Positions 425 to 28,403 are shown, counted from the stretch's first letter. The stretch is 33,093 nt of DNA from an uncultured Syntrophorhabdus sp. (GCA_964638215.1 CAZXBI010000004.1:1-33093), one strand, 5' to 3'. Notes: generated by a model from the sequence alone, not told the origin. Numbers and translations are program-made.

Positions 425-1204
425 ATGAATACTTTAAGGTCTGAGAAACCCAATATACCTTTATACTTCCAGTTAGAACAGATTATTAAATCAAAAATTA
501 TAACTGGAGAATATATGCCCGGTGAACAAATTCCCACGGAGAAAGAAATCTGTGAGACTTACAGGGTGAGCAGCATTACTGCACGACAAGCCATTTTAAA
601 TCTGGTAAACCAAGGACTCCTTATAAGAATGCAAGGGAAGGGAACATTTGTCACAGAGGAGATAGAAAATATAAATACACTCCAACTAAGTGGAAGTATC
701 AATGATTTGATTGCTGATGGACTAAAGACACAAGAAGTAAAAGTGTTGGGCATCTATAGAGTAAAACCTCCTAAAAAGGTTTCTAAATTTTTGAGGATAA
801 AAGAAGATACGGATGTCATACAGGTAAAGAGGACGCGAAATGCTAATAACTCACCTGTCTCTTATATCATTAATTATCTTCCCTTAGAAACAGGAGTAAA
901 GATTAAAGAAGAGGATCTGCAGAAATATCCAATGCTCAAGATATTGAGGGATCAAGTTGGAATACCATTGAGTGGGGCCATGCAATATATAGAAGCTATT
1001 GTTGCAGATTATGATATTGCCTCTGCCCTTTCTGTAAGTATCACCTCACCAATTCTTTATATAGAGACCTTAGTATTTGAAAAGCGAAAGAAACCGGTTG
1101 AATTCGTACAGACCTTCATCAGGCCTGACCGGTATAAATACTCTGTCAAATTAAGCGTGAAAAGGGGACCCCAAAATGAGGTTCTGATGACAAGGAGGGA
1201 GTAA
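425..1204 (+). CDS. GntR family (HutC subfamily) transcriptional regulator with UTRA domain
   Basis: N-terminal wHTH PLYFQL...PGEQIPTE...YRVSSITARQA...QGKGTFV, C-terminal UTRA-like domain (R.R..N..PVSY...YLP), 259 aa. Confidence 0.93.
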   Translation: MNTLRSEKPNIPLYFQLEQIIKSKIITGEYMPGEQIPTEKEICETYRVSSITARQAILNLVNQGLLIRMQGKGTFVTEEIENINTLQLSGSINDLIADGLKTQEVKVLGIYRVKPPKKVSKFLRIKEDTDVIQVKRTRNANNSPVSYIINYLPLETGVKIKEEDLQKYPMLKILRDQVGIPLSGAMQYIEAIVADYDIASALSVSITSPILYIETLVFEKRKKPVEFVQTFIRPDRYKYSVKLSVKRGPQNEVLMTRRE

Positions 1205-1207
1205 AAA

Positions 1208-2044
1208 ATGGAAGAGAGGAAAAAAGGCTGGTGGGACACAGAAATTATTGATGTTAAACCGAATCAGATAATCATTAGTGGTTATCATATCCAAGATCTC
1301 ATGGGCCGTGTGAGTTATGGTGAAATGCTTTATCTTATGATTATGGGAAGACTCCCTCAGGAAACAGCTGGAAAATTAATTGACGCTGTTCTGGTTGCGG
1401 TCTGTGATCAAGGTGTAATTTCACCTGCAATTACAACAAGTTGCATGGCGGCCACCTGCGGGGTCACCTTCAATAGTGCCATTGCCTCAGGAATGAATCT
1501 ATTAGGAAAGATTCATGGTGGTGCAATCGAAGAGGCAATGGAAGTTTTCTATGAAGTAGTGGGCCGTTCAGAGAAAGAAGGGAAAAGTATAAAAGAGATA
1601 GCTCTTGATGTGGCCAAAAGATATAAAGAGTCTAAACAATTTATGCCAGGCTATGGTCATCCTGTGCATAAAGAGGATCCTCGGACCACCCGACTTTGGA
1701 AAATGTCTGAAGTCGCGGTGAAGAAGGGAGAAATCAGTGGTAAGTATGTAGAAGCAGCAAAGTCTATTTATGAAGCCATGAAGGAAATATTTGGAAAGCA
1801 TCTCACCATTAATATAGATGCTTCTGCCGCTGCTATCCTCTGTGAACTTGGAATCCCTTCCAAGACAGCCCCTGGATTTATCTGTTTGTCCCGGGGCTTG
1901 GGATTATTAGCCCATGCTTATGAGGAAATCAAATTCGGAAAGAGAATGAAGGCACCCATGCCCCCTGATCTTTTAAATGAACATATGACTTACTCCGGCC
2001 CTCCCTCGAGAGAATTACCGGCTGAAAGGAAAGATTTACCGTAA
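1208..2044 (+). CDS. Citryl-CoA lyase-like protein (short citrate synthase fold)
   Basis: 278 aa. W.TEI...I.ISGY...DL, HGGAIE, PGYGHPVH..DPR, INID...A, SR..GL.AH motifs of the Ccl / ATP-citrate lyase C-terminal module. Confidence 0.85.
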   Translation: MEERKKGWWDTEIIDVKPNQIIISGYHIQDLMGRVSYGEMLYLMIMGRLPQETAGKLIDAVLVAVCDQGVISPAITTSCMAATCGVTFNSAIASGMNLLGKIHGGAIEEAMEVFYEVVGRSEKEGKSIKEIALDVAKRYKESKQFMPGYGHPVHKEDPRTTRLWKMSEVAVKKGEISGKYVEAAKSIYEAMKEIFGKHLTINIDASAAAILCELGIPSKTAPGFICLSRGLGLLAHAYEEIKFGKRMKAPMPPDLLNEHMTYSGPPSRELPAERKDLP

Positions 2045-2068
2045 ACTTAATTTAAAAGGAGGGATCAA

Positions 2069-3340
2069 ATGGCGAGGCTTTTAGAGTATCAAGGGAAAGA
2101 TATTTTTAAGAAGAATGGTATTGCCATTCCAAAAGGCAAATTAGCCAAGTCTCCTCAAGAGGCGAGACAAATAGCTGAGGAGTTTCGAGCCTCTGTTGTC
2201 ATTAAAGCACAGGTATTGATAGGCAAAAGGGGAAAGAGCGGAGGAATCAAATTTGCAAAAACCCCTGACGAAGCAGAGCAAGCTACTCGTGAAATCTTAA
2301 CATTAAAAATCGAAAATATGCCAGTACAAAGTGTTTTAGTAGAAGAGATGCTGGATATTAAGAAAGAGCTCTATATGGGAGTGACGACCAGTGATGCTAC
2401 ACGGGCTCCTATTGCAATATTTAGTATGAGCGGGGGGATGGATATTGAAGAAGTCGGAAAGAAGAATCCTGAGAAGATCGTTACTAAAGATATTTCAATT
2501 GGTCGGGGTTTTTATGAATTCGATGCCCGTAATATGTTACGAAAAGTCGAAGGGCTTTCAGGCAGTGAAATTAATAATTATGCACAAACACTCGCTAATC
2601 TTTATAAGGTCTACAGAAAGAATGATTGCAAACTTGCAGAAATCAACCCTTTGGCTGTAACAACGAAAGGAGTATTCGCTGCAGATGCGCGAATAGATAT
2701 CGATGACGATGCCATTTGGCGACACCCGGAATTGGGTATAGAGGTTTCGGAAGAAGCAGGGGCGAGGGAACCTACACCTCTTGAGATTGCTGCTGGACAG
2801 ATTGATAAGAATGATCATCGGGGGAGCGCGCATTTTGTTCAGATAGACCCTAATGGATCTTATGCACAGAAAATTAATAAAATCTCTATTGGGTACGATT
2901 GTGTAGGGACGGGGTGTGCAATTACCCTGTTCGATGAGATATACCCTTTAGGCTATTATCCCATCGATTTTTGTGATACATCAGGGAATCCTACTTCTTT
3001 GAAGATGTATGCCGCCACAAAAATCGTATTTTCTCAACCACAGATTCGTGGTTATCTCATGGTCACAGGCATGGCAGCGCAACAGCTCGATAACACAGCT
3101 CGAGGAATAATAAAGGCTTTAAAAGAGCTTTATCCAAAAACAGGAGGTAAACCTAATATTCCTTGTGTTTTATGCTTTCGGGGGAGGTCTGATGAGGTAG
3201 CTGTTCAACTATTCAAGGATCATGGGATAAGCGATAGCCCATACTTTAAGGTATTAGGACGCTATAACACCGAGAAGAGTGCGGCAGAAGAGTTCGATAA
3301 TCTATATAAGAAATGGGAAAAGGAAACAGGAGGGATATAA
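2069..3340 (+). CDS. ADP-forming acyl-CoA synthetase beta subunit (SucC/CcsA-like, ATP-grasp)
   Basis: LLEYQGK, VIKAQV..GKRGKSGGIK, GGMDIEEV, AEINPL, ADAR..IDDDA motifs. The C-terminal acid-binding domain is divergent from SucC. Confidence 0.85.
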   Translation: MARLLEYQGKDIFKKNGIAIPKGKLAKSPQEARQIAEEFRASVVIKAQVLIGKRGKSGGIKFAKTPDEAEQATREILTLKIENMPVQSVLVEEMLDIKKELYMGVTTSDATRAPIAIFSMSGGMDIEEVGKKNPEKIVTKDISIGRGFYEFDARNMLRKVEGLSGSEINNYAQTLANLYKVYRKNDCKLAEINPLAVTTKGVFAADARIDIDDDAIWRHPELGIEVSEEAGAREPTPLEIAAGQIDKNDHRGSAHFVQIDPNGSYAQKINKISIGYDCVGTGCAITLFDEIYPLGYYPIDFCDTSGNPTSLKMYAATKIVFSQPQIRGYLMVTGMAAQQLDNTARGIIKALKELYPKTGGKPNIPCVLCFRGRSDEVAVQLFKDHGISDSPYFKVLGRYNTEKSAAEEFDNLYKKWEKETGGI

Positions 3341-3341
3341 G

Positions 3342-3674
3342 ATGGGAGAAGATAGTTTAGAGTTTGAAACAATGGCAGGCGCTATCGTTCGATTCGATTT
3401 AAAGAAGTGTGATGAGTGTAAAACAAAGGCATGTATTGAGGCAGACCACCTTCCTTTTCTTGGGCCGGTTTTAGAATTGAAGGATGGAAGACCTGCTCCT
3501 ATGTGGAACAAGGACGAGATCAAAAAAAGGAAATGTACGGATTGCGTAGCATGTGAGTTGGAATGTCAATTACGCGGTAATGGAGGAGTTACAATAACCT
3601 ATGTCATGCCAAAACTGGATGAGTATTTAGCAGATTTAGAAAAAAAAGGGATTAAACCTGTATATAAAAGATAG
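3342..3674 (+). CDS. Small ferredoxin-like Fe-S protein
   Basis: ATG at 3342 follows GGAGGG. 110 aa with CDECKTKACIEAD and CTDCVACELEC (CxxCxxCxxxC) motifs. Confidence 0.75.
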   Translation: MGEDSLEFETMAGAIVRFDLKKCDECKTKACIEADHLPFLGPVLELKDGRPAPMWNKDEIKKRKCTDCVACELECQLRGNGGVTITYVMPKLDEYLADLEKKGIKPVYKR

Positions 3675-3684
3675 GAGAGCAAAG

Positions 3685-4593
3685 ATGGCTATTTTAGTTG
3701 ACCAAAACACAGAGGTATTAATTCAGGGAATCACTGGAAGAGAGGCAACAATTCGAACTGGGGTGATGAAGGGGTATGGAACCAAAGTTGTTTGTGGGGT
3801 CACACCTGGACGTGGAGGAACAGAAGTCAATGGAATTCCGGTCTATAACACAGTTGAAGAAGCAAAGGAAAAACATCCGAATGTGAGTGTCACGACTATT
3901 TTTGTTGCTGCAAGAATGGCCAAGGAGGCAGCTTTAGAGGCACTCGATGCGGGTATTAAGGTAGTAGTCTTGATTCCTGAAAGACTTCCCCACCAAGATA
4001 TGCTCGAAATCATTGAAAAGGCCCGGGCCATGAAAGCCATTGTATTGGGGCCAAATTGTATTGGAGTTGTTAGCCCGGGAAAAGCCATTGTTGGCATGAT
4101 TGGCGGAACCCCTGAACTTGCAAGGACCATTTTCAAAGAAGGTTATTGTGGGGTCCTTTCCAGAAGTGGTGGGCATACAACCACAGTCAGTTTTTATTTG
4201 ACTCAGGCAGGTGTAGGGCAGAGCACAAGTATCGCCATTGGTGGCGATGCGTTTGTTGGTTCGACATTTATAGATTTATTACCATTATTTGAAAAAGACG
4301 AACAGACGAAAGCGGTGGCAGCCTTTGGAGAGATTGGTACGACGGTCGAAGAAGATGCAGCGAGATTCATTAAGGAGGGAAAATTTACAAAGCCTTTTGT
4401 CATCTATCTGGCTGGAAAATTTACAAGGCCCGATACAAGATTTGGTCATGCTGGTGCTATCATCTCCCGGGGAAGAGGGACCATCGCGGAAAAGGAAAAA
4501 GTGTTGAGAGATGCGGGTGCCTATATTGTGGACCATTTAGGTGATATTGGTGAAGTTGTAAAGAAAGCAATTACTGAGCGTGGGATAAAGTAA
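3685..4593 (+). CDS. sucD: ADP-forming acyl-CoA synthetase alpha subunit (SucD/CcsB-like)
   Basis: MAILVD...VLIQGITG, GVTPGRGG, GPNCIG, SRSGG, IGGD, GEIG and phospho-His FGHAGAI motifs. The symbol is family-level only. Confidence 0.9.
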   Translation: MAILVDQNTEVLIQGITGREATIRTGVMKGYGTKVVCGVTPGRGGTEVNGIPVYNTVEEAKEKHPNVSVTTIFVAARMAKEAALEALDAGIKVVVLIPERLPHQDMLEIIEKARAMKAIVLGPNCIGVVSPGKAIVGMIGGTPELARTIFKEGYCGVLSRSGGHTTTVSFYLTQAGVGQSTSIAIGGDAFVGSTFIDLLPLFEKDEQTKAVAAFGEIGTTVEEDAARFIKEGKFTKPFVIYLAGKFTRPDTRFGHAGAIISRGRGTIAEKEKVLRDAGAYIVDHLGDIGEVVKKAITERGIK

Positions 4594-4606: not shown

Positions 4607-5866
4607 ATGGGCGCTACATTTGCTGAAAAAATATTGGCCATGAAATCAGGAAAAAGCAAGGTCTCTCCTGGAGAATTTGTCATTGCTAAAGTGGACAGCT
4701 CCTTGGCAAATGATGTCACGGCTCCTCTCTTAATTCGGAGGTTCGAAGAGATGGGTTTGGAGAAACTTTATAAACTCCCTGGTGGGTTTGAAATATATAT
4801 CGATCACTATGTCCCTGCCCCTACCATTCGGGCAGCGATGGAACATAAAAAGATCCGTGATTTCTGCAAAAAATTCAATATCTATTTCTCAGAGACTGGA
4901 AATGGAGGACATCTAAGGCTGCCCATTGAAAGAGGCCACTGTAGACCTGGAATGCTTTTTGTTGGAGCAGATTCTCACACCGTCCTTCTCGGAGCAGTAG
5001 GGGCATTTGCTGCTGGAGTGGGCTCCTCAGAACAGGCCTATGTCCTTTACAAAGGAGAGCTCTGGTTTAAAGTTCCCGAGTCGATCAAGATCATTGTTGA
5101 TGGAAAGCTCCCAGAATACGCCATGGGAAAGGATATCGTCCTGAAGATCTTGGGAGACCTTGGTGAGACAGGAGGGCTTTACAAGGCGGTGGAGTTTACG
5201 GGTCCAGCAATAAGTGATCTCAGTATTGATGGGAGGATCGCCATTTGCGGTCTAACCCTGGAAATGGGAGGAAAGATTGGAGTTATTGAGGCAGATGAGA
5301 AGGTTGTGGACTATATGAAAAAGAGAACAAAGGATCCCTTTGAAGTAGTTAGGGCAGATAAGGATGCAATATACGAAAAGACCCACCGTTACAATGTCTC
5401 GGGGTTGGAACCCCAGATTGCCACTCCTCCAAGAATGGATATGGTTAAAGATGTGAAAGAGGTGGAGGGGATCAAAATAGACCAAGTCTATATAGGGTCC
5501 TGTGTGAATGGAGGATTGGAGGATATGGCTATGACTGCCAAGATTTTAAAAGGAAGAAAAGTCAACCCAGAGATAAGATGCATTGTCATTCCTCAGACTA
5601 AAGAAATCTATCAAAATGCCTTAAGAGAGGGTTATATACAAGCAATTTATGAAGCTGGAGCTCTCTTAGCCCCATCTGGATGTGGCCCCTGTGTCGGTGG
5701 CCATATGGGTGTGATGGCTCCAGGGGAAAGGGTTGTTTCCACCGGGTGCAGGAATTTCCCTGGAAGAATGGGAAGTCCTGAGGCTGAGATCTATGTTGCC
5801 TCTCCAGCCACGGCAGCGGCGTCTGCCATTGAAGGCAAAATTACTGATCCAAAGAAATATTTTTAG
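4607..5866 (+). CDS. Aconitase family dehydratase large subunit (LeuC/DmdA/HacA type)
   Basis: TFAEKIL, DHYVPA, GADSHT, IGSC and CGPC (4Fe-4S ligands), [24 protein letters not shown]. Confidence 0.92.
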
Positions 5867-5876
5867 GAGGTACTCG

Positions 5877-6383
5877 ATGGATATCGTAAAGGGAAGAGTG
5901 GTCTACAAACTTAGGGACGATATTGGTACAGATATGATCCTGGCCGGTAGATATTTAATGTTAACCGGAGACGAAGAGTTGGCAGAGCACTGTTTCGAGG
6001 GTCATATTAAAGATTGGAAGGAGAAGGTCAAAATAGGAGATATTTTGGTAGCCGGTGAAAACTTCGGATGTGAAAGTTCGAGAGAGCATGCTCCTGTTGC
6101 TCTAAAAGGTTCTGGCATCGCAGCCGTTATTGCTGAAAGTTTTGGAAGGATCTTCTATAGGAACTCTGTCGCCGTAGGGCTGCCAGTGATCCTTGCTCCC
6201 GGCATATCAAAAAAAGTGGAAGAAGGAGATACTCTGGAAATCGATGTCGATCGTGGGAAGGTGATAAATACGAGAACGAAAGAAGTGATTCGTTTTGATC
6301 CTTTCCCGGATTTTATTCAGGCTTATCTAAATGAAGGCGGGCTTACCAAATATGTAAGAAACAGGCTCGTTAAAAAAGGTTGA
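5877..6383 (+). CDS. Aconitase family dehydratase small subunit (LeuD/DmdB/HacB type)
   Basis: ATG at 5877 after [40 protein letters not shown]...GLP, GGL motifs. Confidence 0.92.
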
Positions 6384-6388
6384 GGGAA

Positions 6389-7252
6389 ATGATGAGGACC
6401 CAGGTAGTTCTTACCCCTACGGAATCGAAAAAGTTAATAGCAAAGGCTGTTGCCGAGATGGATTCTGTAAAGAGAGCACTTAAGGATGGAATCGTCACTA
6501 TCCATCCAAGCAGCTCTACTTTTTTCCTCTTAGAATATATTGCTGGTAAGAGACCAGAAGGAATATGGCTTGTGGGGATGATCGCCCCCAGAGGAGCTTG
6601 TGTTGAAGAGATGACTCAAAAAGCCTTCGAGGAAGACCGATATCAAGAACTCACTAAACCAGCAAACTTTCCTTTCTCTTGGGTTTTTAGGAAGGGGAGG
6701 TTTGAGGAGGGATTGAAGCTTGCAGATATATTAAATGAAATGGGAGAAGGGGATATTTATATTAAAGGTGTTAATGCCATCGATTCTTATGGTTATGTAG
6801 GTGTGCTCCTGGCGAATCTTGCAGGAGGGACAATCGGAAAAGCCTTGGCCATGCAAAAGGAGAAGAAATTCGAAATCCTCTATTTGGCGGGTCTGGAGAA
6901 ATTCATTCCTTCCTCTATTAAAGAAGTGGCCAAAGAGACAGGAAGGGCAAATACAAAAGATGCGCTCGGAATTCCTTGCGGGCTTCTCCCGATAAAAACA
7001 AATTCTATCACAGAAATTGAGGCACTGAAGATGTTGACAGGTGTCGATGCGATCCCAATTGCTGGCGGAGGCGTTGGAGGTGCAGAAGGTTCTTTCATGT
7101 TTGTGATCAAAGGAGAAGAGAAGGAAGTAGAAGAGACCATGAAACTGGTGAAGGGGATAAAAGGTGTAAAATTGCCAAATGTCGGAATGCCGAATTGTCA
7201 AACCTGTCATTTTCCAGGATGTTTTTTTGCGGGTAAAAAGGTGGAAGAATGA
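6389..7252 (+). CDS. Conserved-looking hypothetical protein with C-terminal CxxCxxxxC
   Basis: Long ORF coupled to both neighbours. Motifs LTPTESKKLIAK, KGVNAID, GGTIG, GLEKFIP, GGGVGGAEG, CQTCHFPGC. Start uncertain (6380/6389/6392). Confidence 0.75.
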   Translation: MMRTQVVLTPTESKKLIAKAVAEMDSVKRALKDGIVTIHPSSSTFFLLEYIAGKRPEGIWLVGMIAPRGACVEEMTQKAFEEDRYQELTKPANFPFSWVFRKGRFEEGLKLADILNEMGEGDIYIKGVNAIDSYGYVGVLLANLAGGTIGKALAMQKEKKFEILYLAGLEKFIPSSIKEVAKETGRANTKDALGIPCGLLPIKTNSITEIEALKMLTGVDAIPIAGGGVGGAEGSFMFVIKGEEKEVEETMKLVKGIKGVKLPNVGMPNCQTCHFPGCFFAGKKVEE

Positions 7253-7671
7253 AGATATTTAAAGCTGAGGATTATATAGAAATCGAGAATCCAAACCCAG
7301 GCAAACCGTATAAGTTTCGAATGAAAGATTATATAATAATGAGCAATCCGAATCATGATTCCCCTTATAGGTTTGTCATTCTGTCGCATAAACACAAAGC
7401 TGAGAATTTAGGAGGAATATTCGGCCTTCTTATTCCTGACAGTCAAGTACCTTATCATTATCACAAGAAGCGTGAATCTCTCATTATAGTGTTAAGTGGG
7501 GAAGGGACAGAAATTATTGAAGGGGAAGAGATCCCAATAAAAGCTGGGGATATCTTATATGTACCTGCAGGCGAAAAACACACGATGTTAAATAGATCCA
7601 ACCAAGATTTTCGTTACCTTGAATTCTTTACCTGTCCTCCTCTTACGGCTGACTTTGTTGAGGTGAAATAG
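7249..7671 (+). CDS. Cupin domain protein 1
   Basis: YHYHKKRE...LSGEG...GD.LYVPAGEKH cupin motifs. ATGA overlap with the upstream stop. Confidence 0.88.
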   Translation: MKIFKAEDYIEIENPNPGKPYKFRMKDYIIMSNPNHDSPYRFVILSHKHKAENLGGIFGLLIPDSQVPYHYHKKRESLIIVLSGEGTEIIEGEEIPIKAGDILYVPAGEKHTMLNRSNQDFRYLEFFTCPPLTADFVEVK

Positions 7672-7715
7672 AATATAAAGCGAATCTATAACCATGTGAA
7701 GACAGGAGTATCTCA

Positions 7716-9119
7716 ATGGAGATGGGAAGAAAGATAAGCGAACAACTGGCAGATCTGACAGCACATCTTCGCTATGATGATTTACCTGGAAATGTACGTT
7801 ACCATGCAACTACATTAATTTTAGATCTCTTGGGATCGATCATTGGTTCAAAGAAGATTGAGTCCAGCCAGATGGCAGCAGAATTGGCTTTGGAGTTAGG
7901 TGGACCAGAAGAAAGCAATATCATAGGGTATCATCATAAGGTATCAACGCCTAATGCAGCATTTGCCAATGCAATCCAGGGATATGCTTTTGATTATACG
8001 GATGATCATAACGAGTCAAATTGTCATCCGAGTGTTGCAACGATTCCAGCGAGTTTAGCTCTTGGTCAAAAACTACACTCCAGCGGAAAGGAAATAGTAG
8101 AGGCAATTGCTCTGGGGAATGAAGTGGTTTGCCGGTTAGGAGCGGCATTTCTTGGAAAAACCTATTATCAAGGATTTCATCCAACAAGCACCTGCGGTGT
8201 ATTTGGTGCGGCGATCTCGGCTGCGAAACTTCTGAAACTAGATTTTAAAAGAACAGTCTGGGCTTTAGGAATTGCTGGTAGCCAAGCCGCAGGTTTACTT
8301 GAATGGAATGCTGAGGGATCCTACACCAAGAGGCTTCAAGCAGGCCATCCAGCCATGTGTGGACTCCTCTCAGCCATGTTGGCCGAAAAAGGGTTTAATG
8401 GACCAAGCACGATTTTTGAAGGCGTAACCGGGTTTTTAAATGCTTACTCACTTAACCGAGAATATGACGTTTCCTATATTACAAAGGATTTAGGGAAAGT
8501 TTGGAATTTTTCCACATCGAGCATTAAATTCTATCCGTGTTGCAGGTATTCTGCAGGACATTTGGATGCGTGTCTGGAAATCTATGAAAAGTATCATCCC
8601 GATCCTCAAAAGATCAGAAAAATTTTAATACGTTCTTCAAATTTTGCCATTAAAATTCTGACCACTCCTCTTGAAAGAAAATTAAAACCTCAAACAACAG
8701 TAGATGCCCAATTTAGTATGCCCTATCAAGCGGCTATTGCCCTCATTCGAGGGAAGGTTGATGTCAATGCATTCACGGAGAGTAGTTTTAAAGATCCAAA
8801 GGTTCTCAGTTTGGTTCCGAAGGTGGAATGGACGATTGATGAAGAATTTGAACGCCGTTACCCCAGTTCTTATTCTTGTGCGGTTACAGTGGCCATGGAT
8901 AATGGGGAGACATTTACTTCGGGCGTCGATAACCCCAAAGGGGATTATCGGAATCCTCTAACTCAGGGGGAGATTGAGAATAAATTTATCGGTTTGGCCA
9001 ATATCGAAATAGCGGATGGGAATAAAATAGGGGACATTATCGCTTTCGTTCGAGATATTGAAAAAGCCGTTGATATTAATAGACTGTTCTCTTTAATTGA
9101 GAGCTCATCCACCTCTTAA
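7716..9119 (+). CDS. MmgE/PrpD family protein 1
   Basis: DYTDDH...HPS, GFHPT, K.LQAG, FEG..GF, KFYPCCR, AQFSMPY, PKG...NPL motifs, 467 aa. Confidence 0.93.
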   Translation: MEMGRKISEQLADLTAHLRYDDLPGNVRYHATTLILDLLGSIIGSKKIESSQMAAELALELGGPEESNIIGYHHKVSTPNAAFANAIQGYAFDYTDDHNESNCHPSVATIPASLALGQKLHSSGKEIVEAIALGNEVVCRLGAAFLGKTYYQGFHPTSTCGVFGAAISAAKLLKLDFKRTVWALGIAGSQAAGLLEWNAEGSYTKRLQAGHPAMCGLLSAMLAEKGFNGPSTIFEGVTGFLNAYSLNREYDVSYITKDLGKVWNFSTSSIKFYPCCRYSAGHLDACLEIYEKYHPDPQKIRKILIRSSNFAIKILTTPLERKLKPQTTVDAQFSMPYQAAIALIRGKVDVNAFTESSFKDPKVLSLVPKVEWTIDEEFERRYPSSYSCAVTVAMDNGETFTSGVDNPKGDYRNPLTQGEIENKFIGLANIEIADGNKIGDIIAFVRDIEKAVDINRLFSLIESSSTS

Positions 9120-9147
9120 TAATTCCTTGTTCCGAGAGATCGACTCG

Positions 9148-9948
9148 ATGATTTATGATGAACCGATTTTTCTAATTGGTGGTGATTCATTTGTAACCAT
9201 TGAATTGGGTGATGATGGTAGCCTATTCTTAAATCTATATATTCTTACCTTTGAGAAGATGATATTGGAGTCGAAAATTCCCGGATTGATCGACACAACT
9301 TCCCTTCGGACCACCATAATGGTTCATTATGATCCATTTGTTATCCAGGCTCAACAGCTCATTGAACATTTGCGGACTCTGATATCTTGTGGAATCAATA
9401 TTCCACCTAGAATCCCTTCAAGGCTAATCTATCTGCCTGTTTTTTATAATGACCCCTGGACCCGGGAATGCGCAAGGGAATTTGGATTGCTTCCCAACCT
9501 TGAGATTATTGCAAAAGAAAATAATATTTCCGTAGAAGAGGTGATAGAAATTCACTCTCAGCCGATCTATTTCGTCAGCTACACATCCTTTATGTTTGGA
9601 AGTTTTGGAGCCTTTCCTATTGACCAAAAAACCGTTTTGAAAAATTCGAAATACAAGAAACCACGAAAATGGACACCAAGAGGAACTCTGGGGATAGGTG
9701 GAACAACAACTAATATTTACCCAGTTTCATCTCCTGGCGGAATCATGATGTTAGGAAATATTCCTGTAAAAACTTTCGATACAGAAGGCAGAAATATTTT
9801 TTTTAAAGAAGATCCTCTACTCATTCATCCGGGAGACCGACTTAAATTTTTCTCAATTGAAAAAAGTGAATATGAATATATGAAAAAGTACGTTGATGAT
9901 TATTCTTATAAAATAGAGGAAGGTTATATTGAACCAAAAAAAATATGA
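9148..9948 (+). CDS. pxpB: PxpB/KipI-like carboxyltransferase C-D domain protein (allophanate hydrolase subunit 1 family)
   Basis: GGDS...IELG, PG.ID......VHYDP, LPVFY, PR.WTP.G.LGIGG...IYP..SPGG...LG..P, PGDR.KF. Likely start ATG 9148. Confidence 0.8.
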   Translation: MIYDEPIFLIGGDSFVTIELGDDGSLFLNLYILTFEKMILESKIPGLIDTTSLRTTIMVHYDPFVIQAQQLIEHLRTLISCGINIPPRIPSRLIYLPVFYNDPWTRECAREFGLLPNLEIIAKENNISVEEVIEIHSQPIYFVSYTSFMFGSFGAFPIDQKTVLKNSKYKKPRKWTPRGTLGIGGTTTNIYPVSSPGGIMMLGNIPVKTFDTEGRNIFFKEDPLLIHPGDRLKFFSIEKSEYEYMKKYVDDYSYKIEEGYIEPKKI

Positions 9949-10928
9949 GAGCATGTCAAGTCATTCAGCCTGGCATTTTTAGCGTGATTCAAGATCTCGG
10001 CCGGAAAGGCCATTCTTCAGAAGGAATTCCAAACAGTGGAGCCTTCGACCCTGTTGCTTTTCGATTGGGAAATCTTCTCCTTCAAAATCACCCACAAGCT
10101 GCAGGGATTGAGATTCTTTTGAGAGGACTTTGCTTAGAGTTCTTAGAGAAGACTTGGATTGCGATTACCGGAGGAGATTTGGGAGCAAAGATTGATGGGC
10201 ACCCTGTACCGATGTGGCAGACATTTCCAGTCACTTCAGGGCAAAAACTTTTCTTTTCTGGCCGCATAAAAGGATTAAGGGCTTATTTGTTATTTGCCGG
10301 AGGTTTAGATGTACCTGACTTTTTAGGAAGTCGTTCGACCCATCTTTTTATTAAAAAGGGTGGGGTCGAAGGACGGAATCTTGCAAAGGGGGATGTGTTA
10401 GAAACGTTTTCTCATTCTGCAGAGATTCTGACTCGTCGTGTTCCAACCCAATTGCAACCTCTCTATGGCCCCCCATGGAGACTTCGTATGATCTACGGAC
10501 TCCAATATAAAGTTTTTACTGAATTAAGTTTGGAATCTTTTGAATCATTTACCTGGACAGTTACCCCAGAGGCAGATCGGATGGGTATTCGTTTAAAAGG
10601 TTTTACTTTCGAATTTAAAAAATCTTTTGATCCCGAGCTTAAAAAGTTAGGCGGAAGAGATCCATCTAACATTATAACTGAAGGAAATCCCTTGGGATCA
10701 ATTCAATATCCAGGAGAAGGCCAAGTCATTATTATTGGTCCCGATGGGCCTTGCGTGGGAGGCTATGTCAAATTGGGAACAGTGATCGGTGCTGATTTTT
10801 TCCTATTAGGCCAAGTGATGCCAGGAGATAAGGTAATATTTAAACCCGTCACGCTTGAGGAAGCCTATAAAGAACTTTACCAACAAAAGTCAATTTGTGA
10901 AGATTACGCAGCCTTAGAAGGATGCTGA
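9945..10928 (+). CDS. pxpC: PxpC/KipA-like carboxyltransferase A-B domain protein
   Basis: PG....QDLGR.G....G.P.SGAFD, N.LL.N, G.RAYL...GG, LGSRST, DRMGIRL.G, GGY, Q..PGD.V.F motifs. Confidence 0.85.
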   Translation: MRACQVIQPGIFSVIQDLGRKGHSSEGIPNSGAFDPVAFRLGNLLLQNHPQAAGIEILLRGLCLEFLEKTWIAITGGDLGAKIDGHPVPMWQTFPVTSGQKLFFSGRIKGLRAYLLFAGGLDVPDFLGSRSTHLFIKKGGVEGRNLAKGDVLETFSHSAEILTRRVPTQLQPLYGPPWRLRMIYGLQYKVFTELSLESFESFTWTVTPEADRMGIRLKGFTFEFKKSFDPELKKLGGRDPSNIITEGNPLGSIQYPGEGQVIIIGPDGPCVGGYVKLGTVIGADFFLLGQVMPGDKVIFKPVTLEEAYKELYQQKSICEDYAALEGC

Positions 10929-10961
10929 TAAAGAGGGAGGTTTTTAAGAAGGAGGAGAGCG

Positions 10962-11723
10962 ATGTTTAGAGTTGATTTAAATTCAGATGTTGGCGAAAGT
11001 TTTGGGAATTATAGGTATGGAAACGATGAAGAGAATATGAATTATTTGACATCCGTAAATGTTGCCTGTGGATTACATGCAGGTGACCCTATGGTGATGA
11101 ATGACACTGTTGAATTGGCAAACCAAAAAGGATTAGCCATTGGAGCTCACCCTGGTTTACCAGATCTTCAGGGATTTGGACGTCGAAAAATGGACTTATC
11201 TCCTGAAGAATCTAGAGACTTAGTTCTATATCAAATTGGGGCCCTTAGCGCTTTTGCCAAATTACAAAAATGTAAATTAACCCATGTCACACTTCATGGG
11301 GCACTTTCCGGAATGGGGAAACATAATGAACCATTAGCTCGAAAAATTGTTGAAGGGATTAAAGCATATGATCCGGCCCTGATTTTTACTGGCGTTCCTG
11401 GATTGGCATCTTATGAGGTAGCTAAAGCATTAGGGCTTCGAGTCGCCGCGCTCATTCCAATCGATTTAGATTTTCATAAAGATGGAACTTCGATCATTGA
11501 GAGAAAGAAAAAGAGCCGAGACCCTAAAGAAATCTTACGAAAGGCATTGAAACTTGTGACTAAAGGAAAACTTGAAACAGTTGATGGAGTGGATAAAGAG
11601 TTAAAAGTTGATATTCTATTAGTCCACGGAGATGGCCCGAATGCTATAGACATATTAAAAGAGCTTAGAACCGGCCTAATAAACGCAGGAGTTAAAATTG
11701 AATCCTTTCCCAATTTTATATGA
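10962..11723 (+). CDS. pxpA: PxpA/LamB/YcsF family protein (5-oxoprolinase subunit A-like)
   Basis: DLNSDVGESFG, NVACGLHAGDP, GAHPGLPDLQGFGRR, YQIGAL, HGAL, VHGD motifs. Confidence 0.9.
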   Translation: MFRVDLNSDVGESFGNYRYGNDEENMNYLTSVNVACGLHAGDPMVMNDTVELANQKGLAIGAHPGLPDLQGFGRRKMDLSPEESRDLVLYQIGALSAFAKLQKCKLTHVTLHGALSGMGKHNEPLARKIVEGIKAYDPALIFTGVPGLASYEVAKALGLRVAALIPIDLDFHKDGTSIIERKKKSRDPKEILRKALKLVTKGKLETVDGVDKELKVDILLVHGDGPNAIDILKELRTGLINAGVKIESFPNFI

Positions 11724-16804: not shown

Positions 16805-18781
16805 ATGGTGAATGGTTGTTTCCAAAATCTTTTCCAACCCATCCAAATCGGAAGGATGAAACTTAAGAATAGGATAGTCATGCCTCCTATGTCTACTAAT
16901 TTTGCAGACCCTAAATCTCCTGGTTTTGTTTCAGAAAGGCATAAGTCTTATTATGGAGAAAGGGCGAGAGGGGGGGTAGGTCTCATTATTATCGAATCAA
17001 CCAATGTCAATCCATCAAAAGGTTTTAGGAGATTTGGGCTAGCTTTACACACGGATCAGTTCATTCCCGGCTTCAAAGAATTGGCTGAATCCATTCAAAA
17101 ATGGGGAGCAAAATGTGCTGTTCAACTTAACCACGGAGGGCGCATAGGATTCTTACAAGTTGATTCTGAAGGGACTCTTGGTCAAAATTCTTTAAAACCA
17201 GATCAGTATTTTGCAGCCTCGCCCTTGCCTCATCCGATGACAGGCACCATAGCCAAAGAATTGGCTGAAGATCAACTACAGGAGATCGCTGGATACTTTG
17301 CTGATGCCGCGAAAAGAGCAAGAAAGTCAGGGTTGGATGCTATCGAGCTTCATGGGGGCCATGGATATTTGTTAAACGAATTTTTATCTCCCTATACGAA
17401 CAAACGAAAGGACCGGTTTGGAGGTGACATTGAAGGAAGATCGAGGTTTCCTTTATTCGTGGTCAATCGGGTTAAAGAAGCTGTGGGCGATGATATCACC
17501 CTCATCTATAGGATGAGCGCGATCGAATTTGTAAAGGACGGATTGGAAATTAATGATTCCATTTATTTTGCAAAGGAGCTGGAGGAGGCAGGTGTTCAAA
17601 TCATTCATGTATCGGCTGGTTTGAATGAGACCCCATCAGCGATGAACCGGGTGATCCCACCGATGTCTTATCCAAGGGGGAGGTTAGTCCCATATGCGGA
17701 AGAGATCAAAAAAGAAGTGAAGGTACCAGTGATCGTGGTCCAGAGGATTAACACCCCTGAGCTCGCTGACGATATTATCCGAAGAGGAAAAGCTGACTTG
17801 GTTGCAACCGGTCGGGCCTTGATTGCAGATCCTCATTGGCCTTTGAAAGCTCAAGAAGGAAGACTGGATGAGATCAGGAGATGTATCGCGTGTAATCAGG
17901 GTTGCATGGAGAAGATTGTCATGGAAGAGACCCTCACTTGTCTTCATAACCCGGAGGTAGGTTATGAAAATATATATCGATTTGAGAAAAAAGAGAGAAA
18001 GGGAAGGAGGGTGTTGGTCATTGGTGGGGGGCTGGCGGGAATGGAAGCAAGTTATGTTCTTGCAAAGAGGGGCTGTGATGTCACGTTGATTGAGAATGAA
18101 GATCAGTTGGGGGGAACCGCTAGGGTAGCCTCCGTGATTAATGAGAAGAAAGAATTTAGTGGTGTTTTAGAGTACTTAGAAAATCAATTAAAGAAAATGA
18201 ACGTTGAAATCAAATTGAAAGAACCATTGGACATTCAACGGGTGGAAGAAGGCCATTTTGATGAGATCATCGTAGCTACGGGCTCAACGCCGATCGTCCC
18301 GAAGATGAACCTTCGCAAGAAGAATGTGGTTCGATTCGCGAAGGATGTCCTAAAGAATCCAGAAGGGATCGGAGAAAATATCATTATTCTCGGCGGAGGA
18401 TCCGTAGGGATTGAAGTCGCAGAGTATCTTCATCATTTGGGGAAGGATGTCACCGTTATTGAAATGTTAGATAAGATCTGTTCAGATCTTGGACCTCTCA
18501 ACAGGGTCAATGTATTGGAAAGGATAAACAGTTCATCCATTAAGATTATGTTGAAGACGAAAGTGGTTGAGATAAATGATGAAGGGATAATTATTTTGAA
18601 GGAGGGAAGAGAAGAAAAACTGAGACTCCCTGATAATGTGGTCATTGCCATGGGCACTAGACCGAACCCTCTATCCCTTAAGGATATCGACATTCCTATT
18701 CATTATGTAGGTGATTGTCAAAAAGTGGGGAATGCGATGGATGCAATTCATGGAGCTTTTCACATCGCTGTCAAAATTTAA
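16805..18781 (+). CDS. NADH:flavin oxidoreductase 1 (OYE TIM barrel + 4Fe-4S + FAD/NAD domains, FadH/BaiCD/BaiH-like ene-reductase)
   Basis: LF.PI.IG...LKNRIVMPPM, RARGGVGLII, ELHGGHGYLL..FLSP..N.R.D..GG, CIACNQGC-x11-C, GGGLAGMEA, GGGSVG.E, VGDC motifs. Confidence 0.93.
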   Translation: MVNGCFQNLFQPIQIGRMKLKNRIVMPPMSTNFADPKSPGFVSERHKSYYGERARGGVGLIIIESTNVNPSKGFRRFGLALHTDQFIPGFKELAESIQKWGAKCAVQLNHGGRIGFLQVDSEGTLGQNSLKPDQYFAASPLPHPMTGTIAKELAEDQLQEIAGYFADAAKRARKSGLDAIELHGGHGYLLNEFLSPYTNKRKDRFGGDIEGRSRFPLFVVNRVKEAVGDDITLIYRMSAIEFVKDGLEINDSIYFAKELEEAGVQIIHVSAGLNETPSAMNRVIPPMSYPRGRLVPYAEEIKKEVKVPVIVVQRINTPELADDIIRRGKADLVATGRALIADPHWPLKAQEGRLDEIRRCIACNQGCMEKIVMEETLTCLHNPEVGYENIYRFEKKERKGRRVLVIGGGLAGMEASYVLAKRGCDVTLIENEDQLGGTARVASVINEKKEFSGVLEYLENQLKKMNVEIKLKEPLDIQRVEEGHFDEIIVATGSTPIVPKMNLRKKNVVRFAKDVLKNPEGIGENIIILGGGSVGIEVAEYLHHLGKDVTVIEMLDKICSDLGPLNRVNVLERINSSSIKIMLKTKVVEINDEGIIILKEGREEKLRLPDNVVIAMGTRPNPLSLKDIDIPIHYVGDCQKVGNAMDAIHGAFHIAVKI

Positions 18782-18822
18782 TCCCATTTATAAGATCTTA
18801 TTATAAAAGGAGAAACAGAGAG

Positions 18823-19542
18823 ATGGCATCACTCAAAATTCGTCCCCTTCATGTCGGCACCATTACACGGCAGGCGATGACCTTTTGCTATTGGTTGGAT
18901 CCAGGCAAACTGGTCGACGTTCCATTGATCTCCTGGTATATCGAAGGATCTGACAAGAAAATTCTTGTCGATACTGGTGGAGGAGACCCTTCTCAAGCCC
19001 TTCCACGTTGGAAACCGTATATTAGAACGGAAGATCAGTCCCTTGAAAATGCTCTTAAAAAGGTTGAAGTGAGGTGTGAGGATATCGATATCGTCATTGT
19101 GACACATCTTCACTGGGACCATTCTGCTGGCAATGGGCTATTTCCAAAGGCTAACATTATTGTCCAAAAAGAAGAATTATTTGTTGCCCGCTCACCCTTC
19201 CCCATTATGACTCACGCCTTCATTAAGAGTATCGTGGAAGATATTAACTATACTGTTGTTTCAGGAGATCAGGAGATTTCAAAGGGGATAAAAGTATTTC
19301 TTATACCAGGACATACGTATGGCATGCAGGGGGTCTTGGTAGATGCGGAAACAAAAAGATATTTTATTGCGAGCGATACATTTGGTTTTTTCAAGAATCT
19401 TGAAACGGATCCGCCTACAATCAGTGGGATCTATGTCGATTTAAAAAAGTACTATGAGAGTTTAGAAAAAATATCTCAATTATCAGCTTTCATTCTACCG
19501 GGTCATGATTTTAAAGTCTTTGATAGAGAGGTTTATTTTTAA
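18823..19542 (+). CDS. Metallo-beta-lactamase fold hydrolase, N-acyl-homoserine lactonase/AiiA-like family
   Basis: ILVDTG, THLHWDH, PGHT.G, ASD, PGHD dinuclear metal motifs. ATG 18823 after AGGAGA. Confidence 0.88.
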   Translation: MASLKIRPLHVGTITRQAMTFCYWLDPGKLVDVPLISWYIEGSDKKILVDTGGGDPSQALPRWKPYIRTEDQSLENALKKVEVRCEDIDIVIVTHLHWDHSAGNGLFPKANIIVQKEELFVARSPFPIMTHAFIKSIVEDINYTVVSGDQEISKGIKVFLIPGHTYGMQGVLVDAETKRYFIASDTFGFFKNLETDPPTISGIYVDLKKYYESLEKISQLSAFILPGHDFKVFDREVYF

Positions 19543-19602
19543 TATGGACCTCCCTGGGATAGGGAGAGTGTAAAGAATTTATAACTTTATCAAGGGCAGG
19601 AG

Positions 19603-20841
19603 ATGGATATGAAGCTATCTGATTACGAAAAATCTATTTTGGCAGGGGACTTCGGAGAAGAGGCGAAGAAAATACTGGAAGTGATGACGAAGATCTATGA
19701 GATCAATAATGCCGACGACTTTATTCAGGTCAAAGAGGTGATGCTGGCAAGCACTCAAAATATGTCGATCGGTGGAGAGATGGGGATGGAATTTTTGACC
19801 CGCCTTGCAGAATCCGGAATACAATTCAAAGCAAAGACCATTACAGATCCTGTTTCCATCGATCTTGAAGGATGGAAGCGTATAGGAATTCCAGAGAAAT
19901 ATGCCCGCAAGCAGAAAAAATCTGTGGATGCATTAATGAAGATGGGCGCTGTTCCCACCTGGACCTGCACTCCTTACCTGACTGGATCAATCCATCGATA
20001 TGGAGATCATCTCGCCTATGTCGAAACCTCCTGTGTCATCTTCGCCAATTCCTATTTCGGAGCGAGGACAAACAGGGAGATGGATATATCGGCCTTGGCA
20101 AGTGCTATTACAGGAAATACTCCAAATTACGGATACCATTTATCAGATCATAGGGAAGGACAGATTCTGATCAATATCGAAACAGAATTAAAAACGACCT
20201 CTGATTATGACGCCCTGGGAAACTATGTTGGAAAGATAGTTGGGACAAAAATTCCAGTGTTTAAAAATATGGATAACAATGTATCAACTCAGGCGATGAT
20301 GCAATTGGGGGCAGCCCTCGCCACCACTGGAGCTGTTGCACTTTTCCATGTATTAGGAATCACACCGGACATTATTTTAGATCCTTATAAATATGGAGAA
20401 AAAAGTATTACCAAGAAGGTTACGATTACAGATACTGATATGAAAAAGGCCTACCAAGAATTAAATACAACACGTAGCACAGAAATCGATTTTGTTTCCA
20501 TTGGGTGCCCTCATTATACCATTGATAAGATTAGGGAGATTGCTTCTTTCTTAGAGGGGAAAAAGGTAAAAAGGGGTGTCGAAGTGTGGGTCTGTACTTC
20601 AAAGACAATTCGAAATATGGGTCTGCTGAGTGGTGAGATACAGACGATAGAGAAATCAGGAGCGAAAGTAGTAGTGGATACGTGCATGGTTTTAGCTCCG
20701 GTGAAACAAATAGGATTTCATAATATGGCCACTGATTCAGCAAAGGCTCAATTCTATTGTTCTGGTTTTGGACTGGGTGTGAGGTTTGGGAATACAGAGA
20801 AATGCCTACAGGCTGCTATCACAGGCAAATGGGAGGATTAA
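19603..20841 (+). CDS. Aconitase X catalytic (large) subunit, DUF521
   Basis: M.L...E..IL.G..GE, T.TCTPY, FANS..GARTNRE, A.TG.TP.YG.H, GAALATTG.V.LFH..G.TP, GCPH, DTCMV..P, TDSAKA motifs. Confidence 0.9.
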   Translation: MDMKLSDYEKSILAGDFGEEAKKILEVMTKIYEINNADDFIQVKEVMLASTQNMSIGGEMGMEFLTRLAESGIQFKAKTITDPVSIDLEGWKRIGIPEKYARKQKKSVDALMKMGAVPTWTCTPYLTGSIHRYGDHLAYVETSCVIFANSYFGARTNREMDISALASAITGNTPNYGYHLSDHREGQILINIETELKTTSDYDALGNYVGKIVGTKIPVFKNMDNNVSTQAMMQLGAALATTGAVALFHVLGITPDIILDPYKYGEKSITKKVTITDTDMKKAYQELNTTRSTEIDFVSIGCPHYTIDKIREIASFLEGKKVKRGVEVWVCTSKTIRNMGLLSGEIQTIEKSGAKVVVDTCMVLAPVKQIGFHNMATDSAKAQFYCSGFGLGVRFGNTEKCLQAAITGKWED

Positions 20842-20842
20842 A

Positions 20843-21256
20843 ATGTCACTCGCTTATCAGGGAAGAAGCATATGCAACGGTTTGGCCGAGGGCGAAGCCC
20901 TCGTAACAAAACAAGGAATCTCTTTTTTGGGAGGAGTCGATCCAGAGACAGGTGTCATTACCGAAGTGGATCACGAACTCCATGGGGAAAGATTGGGGGG
21001 GAAGATACTTGTCCTTCCTTCCCTTAAAGGATCTGCTGGTGGGATGTGGATCCTCATCCGATTAGCAGCCAGCCAAAAAGGTCCCAAAGCGGTCATTGTT
21101 GCTCAAGCGGATACCATTTTAGTTGGGGCAGTAATCATAGGAGAGATCCCGACTGTTGATTCGTTGCCTACGGATGCTTTCCAAATGTTTAAAAGTGGCG
21201 ATTTATTAAAGGTAGATGGAACCAAGGGGACGGTAGCACTCATTAAAAAAAGGTAA
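20843..21256 (+). CDS. Aconitase X swivel (small) subunit, DUF126
   Basis: GR.I..G.AEGEALV....ISFLGGVDPETG.I....H.L.G....GKILV.P..KGS, IP.VD, VDG..G.V. ATG at 20843. Confidence 0.9.
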   Translation: MSLAYQGRSICNGLAEGEALVTKQGISFLGGVDPETGVITEVDHELHGERLGGKILVLPSLKGSAGGMWILIRLAASQKGPKAVIVAQADTILVGAVIIGEIPTVDSLPTDAFQMFKSGDLLKVDGTKGTVALIKKR

Positions 21257-21331
21257 GGCCCATCCATTGTGGTTGAGCGAGAAGTTTTTGTGATCTCATA
21301 AATATAATTCAATTGGAAGGAGGAGGATTTT

Positions 21332-22723: not shown

Positions 22724-22827
22724 AAAGAGGAATTCCTCATTGAGGAAAGGGGTTTCCAAAGAGGATTAAAATACTTTGGGACCTCTTCAGTGAGAAAGAA
22801 AAAACCGAGAAAAAGGGGGTTTTTTCA

Positions 22828-23991: not shown

Positions 23992-24024
23992 TGATTTTAA
24001 AATTGACGGGAGGATAAAAAGAAG

Positions 24025-25995: not shown

Positions 25996-26019
25996 ACTTA
26001 CTAATGGAGAAGGGAGAAA

Positions 26020-26355
26020 ATGGAAATTAAAGTCAAAAAGATATCAGAACTTCCAGAAAAGCAGGAAATTGGTCACGAAGGATTTGTTGCCCGTTCGCTT
26101 GTCACCTTATTAGAAAAGGGGATTGCAGTAAGACTAATTAACGTTGCGCCTGGGGGAATAGGTCCAGTTACACCCCATAGCCATCCAGACATTCATTTCT
26201 TTTTAGTACTCGAAGGTACATTAGAGTTGGAGATTGATGGTCAACTCTATACGGTCCCAGGTGGGTCGTGTGTTGAAGTACCTCCAGGAAAAACACATCA
26301 ATTGCGCTGTCGTGGCCCAAAAGAGATGAAAGTGCTCGCCATCAAATGGACCTGA
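26020..26355 (+). CDS. Cupin domain protein 2
   Basis: PGG.....HSHPDIH...VLEG......DG......G....VPPG..H motifs. Confidence 0.85.
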   Translation: MEIKVKKISELPEKQEIGHEGFVARSLVTLLEKGIAVRLINVAPGGIGPVTPHSHPDIHFFLVLEGTLELEIDGQLYTVPGGSCVEVPPGKTHQLRCRGPKEMKVLAIKWT

Positions 26356-26460
26356 TATTTTTTAAGAAGTCTCCATTTTGTACTCGAATATAATCTACCA
26401 ACATTTATGGTTTGGGACCAACATATCTACATGTCCAGTATAAAGTAAGGAGAATAAAAC

Positions 26461-26871: not shown

Positions 26872-26945
26872 AGAGAGATGAGCATGAGTCCATTTGGCGA
26901 TGGAAACCATGAGGAAAGACAACATTTTAAACAGGAGGTATCAGA

Positions 26946-28313: not shown

Positions 28314-28403
28314 ATTGAGCGAGACCTCTATCAGATAGAATATTTTATTTTTAGATAATGAGTAGGGGCCATGTTCAAACTGAAAACGGAATTGGAGGGA
28401 AAA

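Follow-up and report, generated by a model that had tools for sequence, protein, structure and literature searches.

A distinct clade of predicted acid–CoA ligases with a small cysteine-rich subunit, encoded beside a citryl-CoA-lyase-type enzyme in an uncultured Syntrophorhabdus

Gene content of the locus

The subject of this analysis is a compact gene module near the 5' end of a 33,093-nt stretch of DNA from an uncultured Syntrophorhabdus sp. (GCA_964638215.1 CAZXBI010000004.1:1-33093), the whole of which we refer to as the window; the source metagenome-assembled genome (MAG) comprises 677 contigs and is 89% complete with a contamination of 2.64%. The module encodes a citryl-CoA-lyase-type acyl-CoA lyase with a short citrate-synthase fold (Ccl, positions 1208..2044), the ATP-grasp subunit of an ADP-forming acid–CoA ligase (beta, 2069..3340) and the CoA-binding, phospho-histidine subunit of that ligase (alpha, 3685..4593), all on the + strand, and these open reading frames (ORFs) lie exactly where an initial annotation had placed a citryl-CoA-lyase-like gene ahead of two ligase genes. 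That annotation was right to set Ccl directly before beta. However, it also made beta and alpha adjacent and thereby missed an intervening ORF for a 110-aa Cys-rich, ferredoxin-like protein (3342..3674, +), which we assign as a small subunit of the ligase from its ribosome-binding site, synteny, fusions in relatives and an AlphaFold2 (AF2) model.

Immediately upstream is a gene for a GntR/UTRA (HutC-type) transcriptional regulator (425..1204, +; Pfam GntR 1.4e-18, UTRA 4.8e-30), whose stop codon lies 3 bases 5' of Ccl; a regulator also stands upstream of Ccl in the related locus L001. Downstream of alpha are genes for the large (4607..5866, +) and small (5877..6383, +) subunits of an Fe-S dehydratase of the isopropylmalate isomerase (IPMI)/homoaconitase family, followed by unk290 (6380..7252, +), a conserved 290-aa protein of unknown family with which, judging by synteny, the conserved core ends. 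From the regulator to the dehydratase the genes share one strand and are separated by gaps of only 1-24 bases. The unk290 protein gave no Pfam or NCBIfam match and only 'hypothetical protein' clusters in Atlas; it is kept in L001 and L003, and its AF2 model was unusable (pLDDT 33.7). Scans of the sequence returned no excess of promoters (27 vs 25.5 in shuffles) or of terminators (10 vs 10.3).

The ligase and its predicted small subunit

The ATP-grasp domain, the CoA-binding domain and the phospho-histidine loop that characterize the ADP-forming acyl-CoA synthetase superfamily are all present in the ligase. Pfam ATP-grasp_2 covers beta residues 4-196 (1.2e-55), with neither Ligase_CoA nor Citrate_bind of Pfam on the C-terminal half, and alpha matches CoA_binding (4.9e-24) and Ligase_CoA (4.5e-14). 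Neither subunit reaches the cut-offs for succinyl-CoA synthetase (SCS): beta scored 251 bits against the SucC equivalog NF001913 (cut-off 370), and alpha scored 296.7 and 291.9 bits against the SucD models TIGR01019 (cut-off 353.2) and NF004230 (cut-off 336). Nor does beta reach the cut-off of the MtkA model NF010647 (168.2 bits, cut-off 604).

All of the motifs singled out in the initial annotation are present in the translations, namely VGTGCAIT, DFCDTSGNP and MVTGMAAQQLD in beta and SRSGGHT in alpha, along with the ATP-grasp domain and the phospho-histidine motif FGHAGA. The contrast it drew with ordinary SCS is equally accurate: NGAGLAM, NFLDVGGG and NIFGGI stand in the canonical SucC that contig C629 of this genome encodes, and SRSGTLT in the alpha chains of solved SCS. 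The contrast is therefore real and beyond chance. Beta residues D249/R251/G252, G280/G282, S305/G306/P308 and Q338 are invariant in an alignment of 28 rows from the clade described below. Similarly, SRSGG and His255 (in RFGHAGA) are invariant across 15 alpha sequences; compared with alpha chains of solved SCS, the window's alpha has 6 inserted residues.

An exhaustive search of 1.84 billion representatives returned 7722 homologues of beta at E <= 0.001. When motifs were tabulated for 142 rows, three groups emerged: a SucC type, a type shared by CcsA and ATP-citrate lyase (ACL), and a third type. Rows of the CcsA/ACL type carry the insertion IDxxDHRGvAG and the motifs ANYTEYSGNP and ANFTRID, while third-type rows have the same insertion but DTSGNP plus SQQLDN or SQEQWH. 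The C-terminal domain of the window's beta, which has in common with CcsA both the insertion and an SGNP motif, is nearer to CcsA than to SucC.

In a tree of 99 rows and 405 columns (an unrooted IQ-TREE quick search with SH-aLRT support only), the window's beta falls in a clade of 48 rows (SH-aLRT 99) that we name after its DTSGNP motif. Separate from it are a SucC clade (22 rows, SH-aLRT 99), which contains the genome's own SucC, and a CcsA clade (13 rows, SH-aLRT 99). The latter is anchored by P0286, with 483 bits to the solved CcsA 6hxq_B, and by Citrate_bind (PF16114), which matched all six sampled members (P0286, P0252, P0207, P0241, P0239 and P0198) and gave no match on the window's beta at E <= 0.01. 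Representatives shorter than 360 aa were excluded, as were P0196, P0222, P0313 and P0243, and only one in four of the SucC-motif rows was used; CcsA is represented by P0286 and its clade, and the rows include no named MtkA or AclB sequence. The ligase is neither a SucCD nor a CcsAB orthologue and belongs to a distinct, well-supported clade, a previously undescribed branch of the SCS family. Grouping with bona fide SucCD, which had been named as the result that would overturn the initial annotation, was not found, and its likening of the ligase to CcsAB survives for the C-terminal kinship but not for a two-subunit enzyme, the clade being another one and a third subunit being present.

These data also bear on the simplest alternative, that the ligase is an ordinary SCS paralogue with coincidental neighbours. 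The best solved matches by whole-sequence score are SCS chains (3ufx_B at 2.7e-63 for beta, 2yv2_A at 7.8e-85 for alpha), JGI annotates relatives as 'succinyl-CoA synthetase' (genome annotation also has 'ATP-grasp domain-containing protein'), and one clade member lies near a methylmalonyl-CoA mutase gene. But the SucC and SucD cut-offs are missed, three C-terminal SucC motifs are replaced, the clade is separate, the genome encodes a canonical SucC as well, and lyase synteny and fusions, described below, are conserved. We consider this explanation very improbable.

The ORF between beta and alpha starts one base past the beta stop codon and has AGGAGGG ahead of its ATG. Its product contains the motifs CxxCxxxxC and then CxxCxxCxxxC, with Asp at the place of the fourth ligand of the first motif, and scored 17.7 bits with Fer4_10 (threshold 25.5). 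A homologue of this ORF follows beta in 16 of 16 DTSGNP-clade loci with downstream DNA (the window, L001-L004, L005 twice, L006-L009, L063-L066 and L068; L010, which ends within beta, was left out) and in neither of two ligase loci outside the clade (L062 and L067). Furthermore, the small subunit is fused to the C-terminus of beta in 11 of 15 representatives of at least 450 aa, as well as in L064 and L068.

Residues C23, C26, C31, C71 and C75 are invariant in nine small-subunit sequences. That an Fe-S cluster is assured is called into question by two findings: across 30 rows that include the fusions C71 is the sole invariant Cys, and the fusions P0191, P0197 and P0214 are without the first Cys motif. 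Given this partial loss among relatives, a cluster appears likely, from its sequence, in the window's protein, but it is not universal. The AF2 model of the small subunit has a pLDDT of 89.7. A Foldseek search with it gave no match at E <= 0.001, and the weak neighbours were all ferredoxin-type domains, among them those of 2vkr, of RNA polymerase subunit D and of the N-terminal part of ABCE1.

A complex model of beta, alpha and the small subunit scored 0.83 in each of three runs, with at least 98% contact agreement and a partner pLDDT of at least 85; the best of 3 controls scored 0.07. In the calibration, 116 of 157 solved complexes attained the 0.83 mark, as did 2 of 215 mismatched pairs; the present job, with its own alignments and three chains, is unlike that set. 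The modelled small subunit contacts beta only, at beta residues 237-251 (the clade insertion), 309-328 and 339-364, which flank the beta motifs given above; on the small subunit the predicted interface comprises residues 66-77 and 85-110. On this model the small subunit is predicted to dock on the C-terminal domain of beta. The acid-binding domain, then, is remodelled as had been proposed, but part of the remodelling is a predicted docking surface for the small subunit.

Two other interpretations of the small ORF were tried. We rejected a free electron carrier for the Fe-S dehydratase, as the ORF is fused to beta in relatives and is kept in L006, L009, L063 and L066, which are without such a dehydratase. 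Selenocysteine was raised by six matches in other genomes flagged '1 TGA' and was dropped; in two of the six (L071 and L074) the TGA is the gene's own stop codon, overrun by the profile. A literature search, with subscription papers outside its scope, found no three-subunit or ferredoxin-bearing ligase of the SCS/ACL type.

The lyase and its association with the ligase

Ccl scored 299.8 bits against the NCBIfam citryl-CoA lyase model NF004864, above the cut-off of 261, and its best solved relative is the Hydrogenobacter Ccl (6hxp, 3.4e-43). Six of its residues (H103, H151, D204, R159, R229 and R268) are invariant with respect to the genome's own citrate synthase; taking their roles from the pig enzyme, we assume that His/His/Asp are catalytic and that the Arg residues bind oxaloacetate. 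With a short citrate-synthase fold, the catalytic triad and a score above the cut-off, Ccl has, as far as its sequence can tell, the attributes of a citryl-CoA lyase. It reads CDQG at the place where relatives have DHG: Gln is found in Ccl of the window and of L003, and His in relatives and in citrate synthase (the DHG/EHS motif). Since elsewhere in the genome there are genes for a citrate synthase (427 bits, contig C387) and for the canonical SucC, the window's genes are extra copies and not housekeeping genes.

Locus L001, whose beta is 91% identical, and locus L003, at 76%, retain the order Ccl, beta, small ORF, alpha, IPMI large subunit, IPMI small subunit and unk290; the sequence of L002 (83%) begins at beta. 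In all three loci the dehydratase large subunit lies 3' of alpha, and a paralogous set accompanies the Ccl and ligase genes of L068, a locus from a second phylum, Chloroflexota, with genes for a beta-ferredoxin fusion, alpha, Ccl, an HD protein and IPMI-like proteins. A second module of the relative G001 (L064) consists of a flavoprotein, an Fe-S protein, class-I fumarase subunits, a fused beta, alpha and Ccl. Other lyases follow the clade ligase in further loci: HpcH/HpaI in L005 (copy 1), L006, L009, L063, L065 and L066, and an HMGL-like lyase in L005 (copy 2), with L007 and L008 outside the scan. A pattern recurs of dehydrogenase (sometimes), hydratase, ligase and lyase.

A homologue search with alpha returned 886 proteins at E <= 0.001 among 6669 candidates. 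Among the matches listed, every longer homologue (120 of 120) has a Citrate_synt domain, making it an alpha-Ccl fusion, and SRSGG is present in all 120; their identity is about 47-53% to alpha and 31-37% to Ccl. Taken together, the Ccl, HpcH and HMGL neighbours and the alpha-Ccl fusions show that the DTSGNP ligase family is habitually paired with acyl-CoA C–C lyases. Conserved gene order and fusion likewise bear out the earlier treatment of ligase and lyase as one unit.

G001, a 6.5-Mb relative that carries L062-L066 as well as L001, has seven ATP-grasp_2 ligase genes: one canonical SucC, L062, which is SucC-like in the tree, and five members of the window's clade. Every one of these five is accompanied by a regulator, a hydratase (IPMI, fumarase or MmgE/PrpD) and a lyase (Ccl or HpcH) of its own. 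In the HpcH-linked sister modules L006, L065 and L009 a formyltransferase-like gene comes next, and in L006 and L065 GlcD/GlcF-like FAD/CCG oxidase genes follow as well (L009 ends earlier); a LarA-like racemase gene lies near L006. These neighbours hint at a malate/glyoxylate/glycolate route. In two genomes of the same class, G380 (99% complete, contig C8) and G424 (100%, contig C103), Ccl is the only Citrate_synt-family match and adjoins a fused beta-ferredoxin ligase of a sister clade; PF00285 found no canonical citrate synthase in either, and Re-type citrate synthase was not searched for.

The module is patchily distributed. Among 401 genomes in a sample of the phylum, 27 matched the small-subunit profile, G000 included; for those of good quality the figure was 21 of 339, and the matches cluster in a few families. 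A beta orthologue of at least 76% identity was present in 1 of 30 relatives (83%) and in 0 of 12 genomes of the same genus, where the best matches are 41-43% identical. The module as a whole is absent from those same 12 genomes and yet 83-91% identical in the more distant MAGs that carry L001 and L002, and the contig may be an island gained by transfer or a guest introduced in binning. The stretch was found in rock and groundwater metagenomes. Two metatranscriptome runs from one study contain short contigs with 0-1 differences to positions 2249-2492, 3150-3298, 5751-6007, 6092-6255, 6779-6981 and 7058-7299, the rest of the stretch being uncovered; because RNA libraries can also yield contigs of DNA, these matches hint at expression weakly at best.

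The catabolic setting described in the initial annotation is evident across the window. On the + strand, in addition to the regulator and the IPMI-like dehydratase, are three MmgE/PrpD genes, a PrpF-like gene, a PrpB-like gene, two BaiCD-like flavoenzyme genes and a Liv-type ABC transporter. Genes for a cupin, MmgE/PrpD and PxpB/PxpC/PxpA (5-oxoprolinase type) at 7249-11723 separate unk290 from the transporter; in L001 the transporter directly follows unk290, so that the block has apparently been inserted or lost. A second run of acid-catabolism genes, all under their equivalog cut-offs, occupies 16805-29267. It comprises two Fe-S flavoenzymes like BaiCD/2,4-dienoyl-CoA reductase (16805-18781 and 24025-25995, +), a split AcnX (19603-20841 and 20786-21256), a PrpF/4-oxalomesaconate-tautomerase-like gene (22828-23991, +), a PrpB-like lyase (28371-29267, +), an MBL-fold lactonase-like gene and two more MmgE/PrpD genes.

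Substrate, direction and relation to known systems

The dehydratase offers a hint of the substrate. Its large subunit exceeds the cut-off of NF001614 (517.5 bits, cut-off 385), and the best solved relative of its small subunit is 3vba, the small subunit of an isopropylmalate/citramalate isomerase (2.5e-49). A loop of the small subunit, which we take to be a specificity determinant, reads YLML in the window, YLVY in 3vba and YLRT in the homoaconitase 2pkp, and is hydrophobic also in L001, L003 and L068; a literature search found no paper on the YLRT/YLVR loop. The hydrophobic YLML would point to an alkyl-type substituent. Candidate substrates include citrate, 2-methylcitrate, citramalate and alkylmalates.

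Citrate itself would make the module a true citrate system, in which a divergent three-subunit citryl-CoA synthetase and Ccl produce acetyl-CoA and oxaloacetate by cleaving citrate; as an aconitate hydratase, the IPMI-like enzyme would then supply this system in aconitate/citrate catabolism, or the module would replace ATP-citrate lyase. The Ccl score, the retained His/His/Asp and three Arg residues, the CcsA insertion and SGNP motif in the C-terminal domain of beta, and the standing of Ccl as sole Citrate_synt-family match beside a fused sister-clade ligase in the near-complete G380 and G424 all speak for it. However, beta lies outside the CcsA clade and is without the Citrate_bind match seen in sampled CcsA members; the dehydratase loop, taken as the specificity determinant, is hydrophobic where a binder of the gamma-carboxylate would be expected; in G001 a normal citrate synthase and a second Ccl-ligase module accompany this one, as would suit paralogues that act on different substrates; and Gln replaces His in the DHG/EHS motif of the window and L003 Ccl. 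On balance we regard a true citrate system as unlikely, and a citrate analogue is weakly preferred as the substrate.

The gene order, the clade to which the ligase belongs, the fusions, the catalytic residues that remain intact and the predicted interface of beta with the small subunit lead us to infer the chemistry, direction and substrate of the module as follows. An imported unsaturated or isomeric acid would be converted, through hydration or isomerisation by the IPMI-type Fe-S dehydratase, to a tertiary hydroxy acid of the citrate type, that is, a 2-substituted malate. The ADP-forming ligase, composed of the ATP-grasp beta with the ferredoxin-like subunit on its C-terminal domain and of the phospho-histidine alpha, would convert the CH2-COOH arm to a CoA thioester at the expense of ATP, and Ccl would cleave this thioester in a retro-Claisen reaction to acetyl-CoA (or a short acyl-CoA) and a 2-oxo acid, most simply oxaloacetate. 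We rate the chances of this scheme as about even. It retains part of the interpretation with which the analysis began, the activation and cleavage of a citrate analogue, and that interpretation is as a whole partly supported.

Several observations weigh against the scheme. The substrate hints conflict, the hydrophobic YLML loop standing against the retained citrate-synthase Arg residues of Ccl, and our literature search found no biochemical data on any clade member. The complex score is a model confidence and not a measurement, and the tree is the product of a quick search. Clade member L004 has no adjacent lyase and instead faces genes for methylmalonyl-CoA mutase and an epimerase-like protein. 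Finally, no canonical SucC was found in two Chloroflexota genomes, G003 and G004, whose completeness is not given, and for that reason some clade members may be plain succinyl-CoA synthetases.

The direction of the reaction could also be the reverse. Here Ccl would condense acetyl- or propionyl-CoA with oxaloacetate and the ligase would free the acid and make ATP, so that a (methyl)citrate-type cycle, run with the window's PrpF-, MmgE/PrpD- and PrpB-like genes, could be entered with a saving of energy. Ligase reactions of the SCS and ACL type are reversible, and Moller and colleagues, as cited in PMC12137691, are said to have described, in 1987, an ATP-citrate lyase of Desulfobacter postgatei used for ATP synthesis; the PrpF-like, three MmgE/PrpD and PrpB-like genes are present in the window, and PrpF and MmgE genes flank the module in L003. 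But a GntR/UTRA regulator before the module and an uptake ABC transporter nearby fit a substrate taken up from outside, the scores of the MmgE/PrpD and PrpB-like genes are far under the PrpD and PrpB equivalog cut-offs, and the PrpB-like gene is 24 kb away, with none accompanying the core in the available L001 sequence. The synthetic direction thus seems improbable to us.

Returning to the catabolic scheme, its closest known parallel is CcsAB with Ccl of Hydrogenobacter thermophilus (6hxq, 6hxp), which has the same split, two-step logic of an ADP-forming ligase followed by a short lyase and, in CcsA, the IDxxDHRG insertion and SGNP motif that recur in the C-terminal domain of the window's beta. 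The loops differ, however (GTG for GGG, DTSGNP for DIGGNP and TGMAAQ for GGTA(S/N)N), as do the clade, the Pfam Citrate_bind match, missing here, and the extra Cys-rich subunit. CcsAB serves the reductive tricarboxylic acid (rTCA) cycle, whereas the window's setting is catabolic and regulated. Likewise, ACL (Chlorobium AclAB, 6hxj; human ACLY) has the same three modules of ATP-grasp beta, phospho-His alpha and CCL domain, and the alpha-CCL fusion of AclA is matched by relatives of the window's alpha (about 50% identity), whereas in the window the genes are separate. Similarity to the Chlorobium enzyme is far weaker (beta to 6hxj_A 1.4e-19, alpha to 6hxj_B 1.9e-43), and we know of no ferredoxin-like part described for ACL.

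SucCD shares with the window's ligase its superfamily, subunit sizes, ATP-grasp fold and phospho-histidine, but differs in both equivalog cut-offs, the beta C-terminal motifs, the SRSGTLT of alpha, the clade and the third subunit. MtkAB with malyl-CoA lyase, in the serine cycle, likewise couples a superfamily ligase to a lyase by which the hydroxyacyl-CoA that the ligase forms is cleaved, and sister-clade ligases lie beside genes of the HpcH/HpaI (malyl/citramalyl-CoA-lyase) family; the window's lyase, however, has a citrate-synthase fold and not the HpcH fold, and its beta is far from the MtkA cut-off. The 'type II ACL' of tubeworm symbionts (PMC3522073) lies outside the sequences compared here.

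The module is a regulated, catabolic and patchily distributed operon whose ligase belongs to a distinct clade, has a ferredoxin-like third subunit and is linked in function to an IPMI-type dehydratase and a lyase of the Ccl type. A broader reading, which we hold tentatively and with more doubt than conviction, is that the clade represents unrecognised and widespread three-component thiokinases of anaerobes in which the ferredoxin-like part is obligatory, possibly as an Fe-S redox switch or a structural cluster (compare ABCE1 and archaeal RNA polymerase subunit D). The ligase core would have been joined repeatedly to three unrelated lyase folds (Ccl, HpcH/CitE-type and HMGL-type) and combined with three hydratase types (IPMI, class-I fumarase and MmgE/PrpD), forming a modular free-acid route for the degradation of substituted C4-C6 di- and tricarboxylates, and the window's ligase would act on a citrate analogue that thiokinases are not known to use.

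This would be the first ferredoxin-like subunit in the ADP-forming acyl-CoA synthetase superfamily, and it raises the question of what role an Fe-S-type domain plays on a thiokinase. Natural ligase-lyase pairs for acids such as citramalate, methylcitrate or hydroxymethylglutarate would be of interest for pathway engineering. Surveys of carbon fixation count Ccl and Ccs-like genes as rTCA markers, and both the annotation of these genes and the way such markers are read would have to change if subsurface anaerobes carry a distinct, lyase-coupled clade in operons that are regulated and catabolic.

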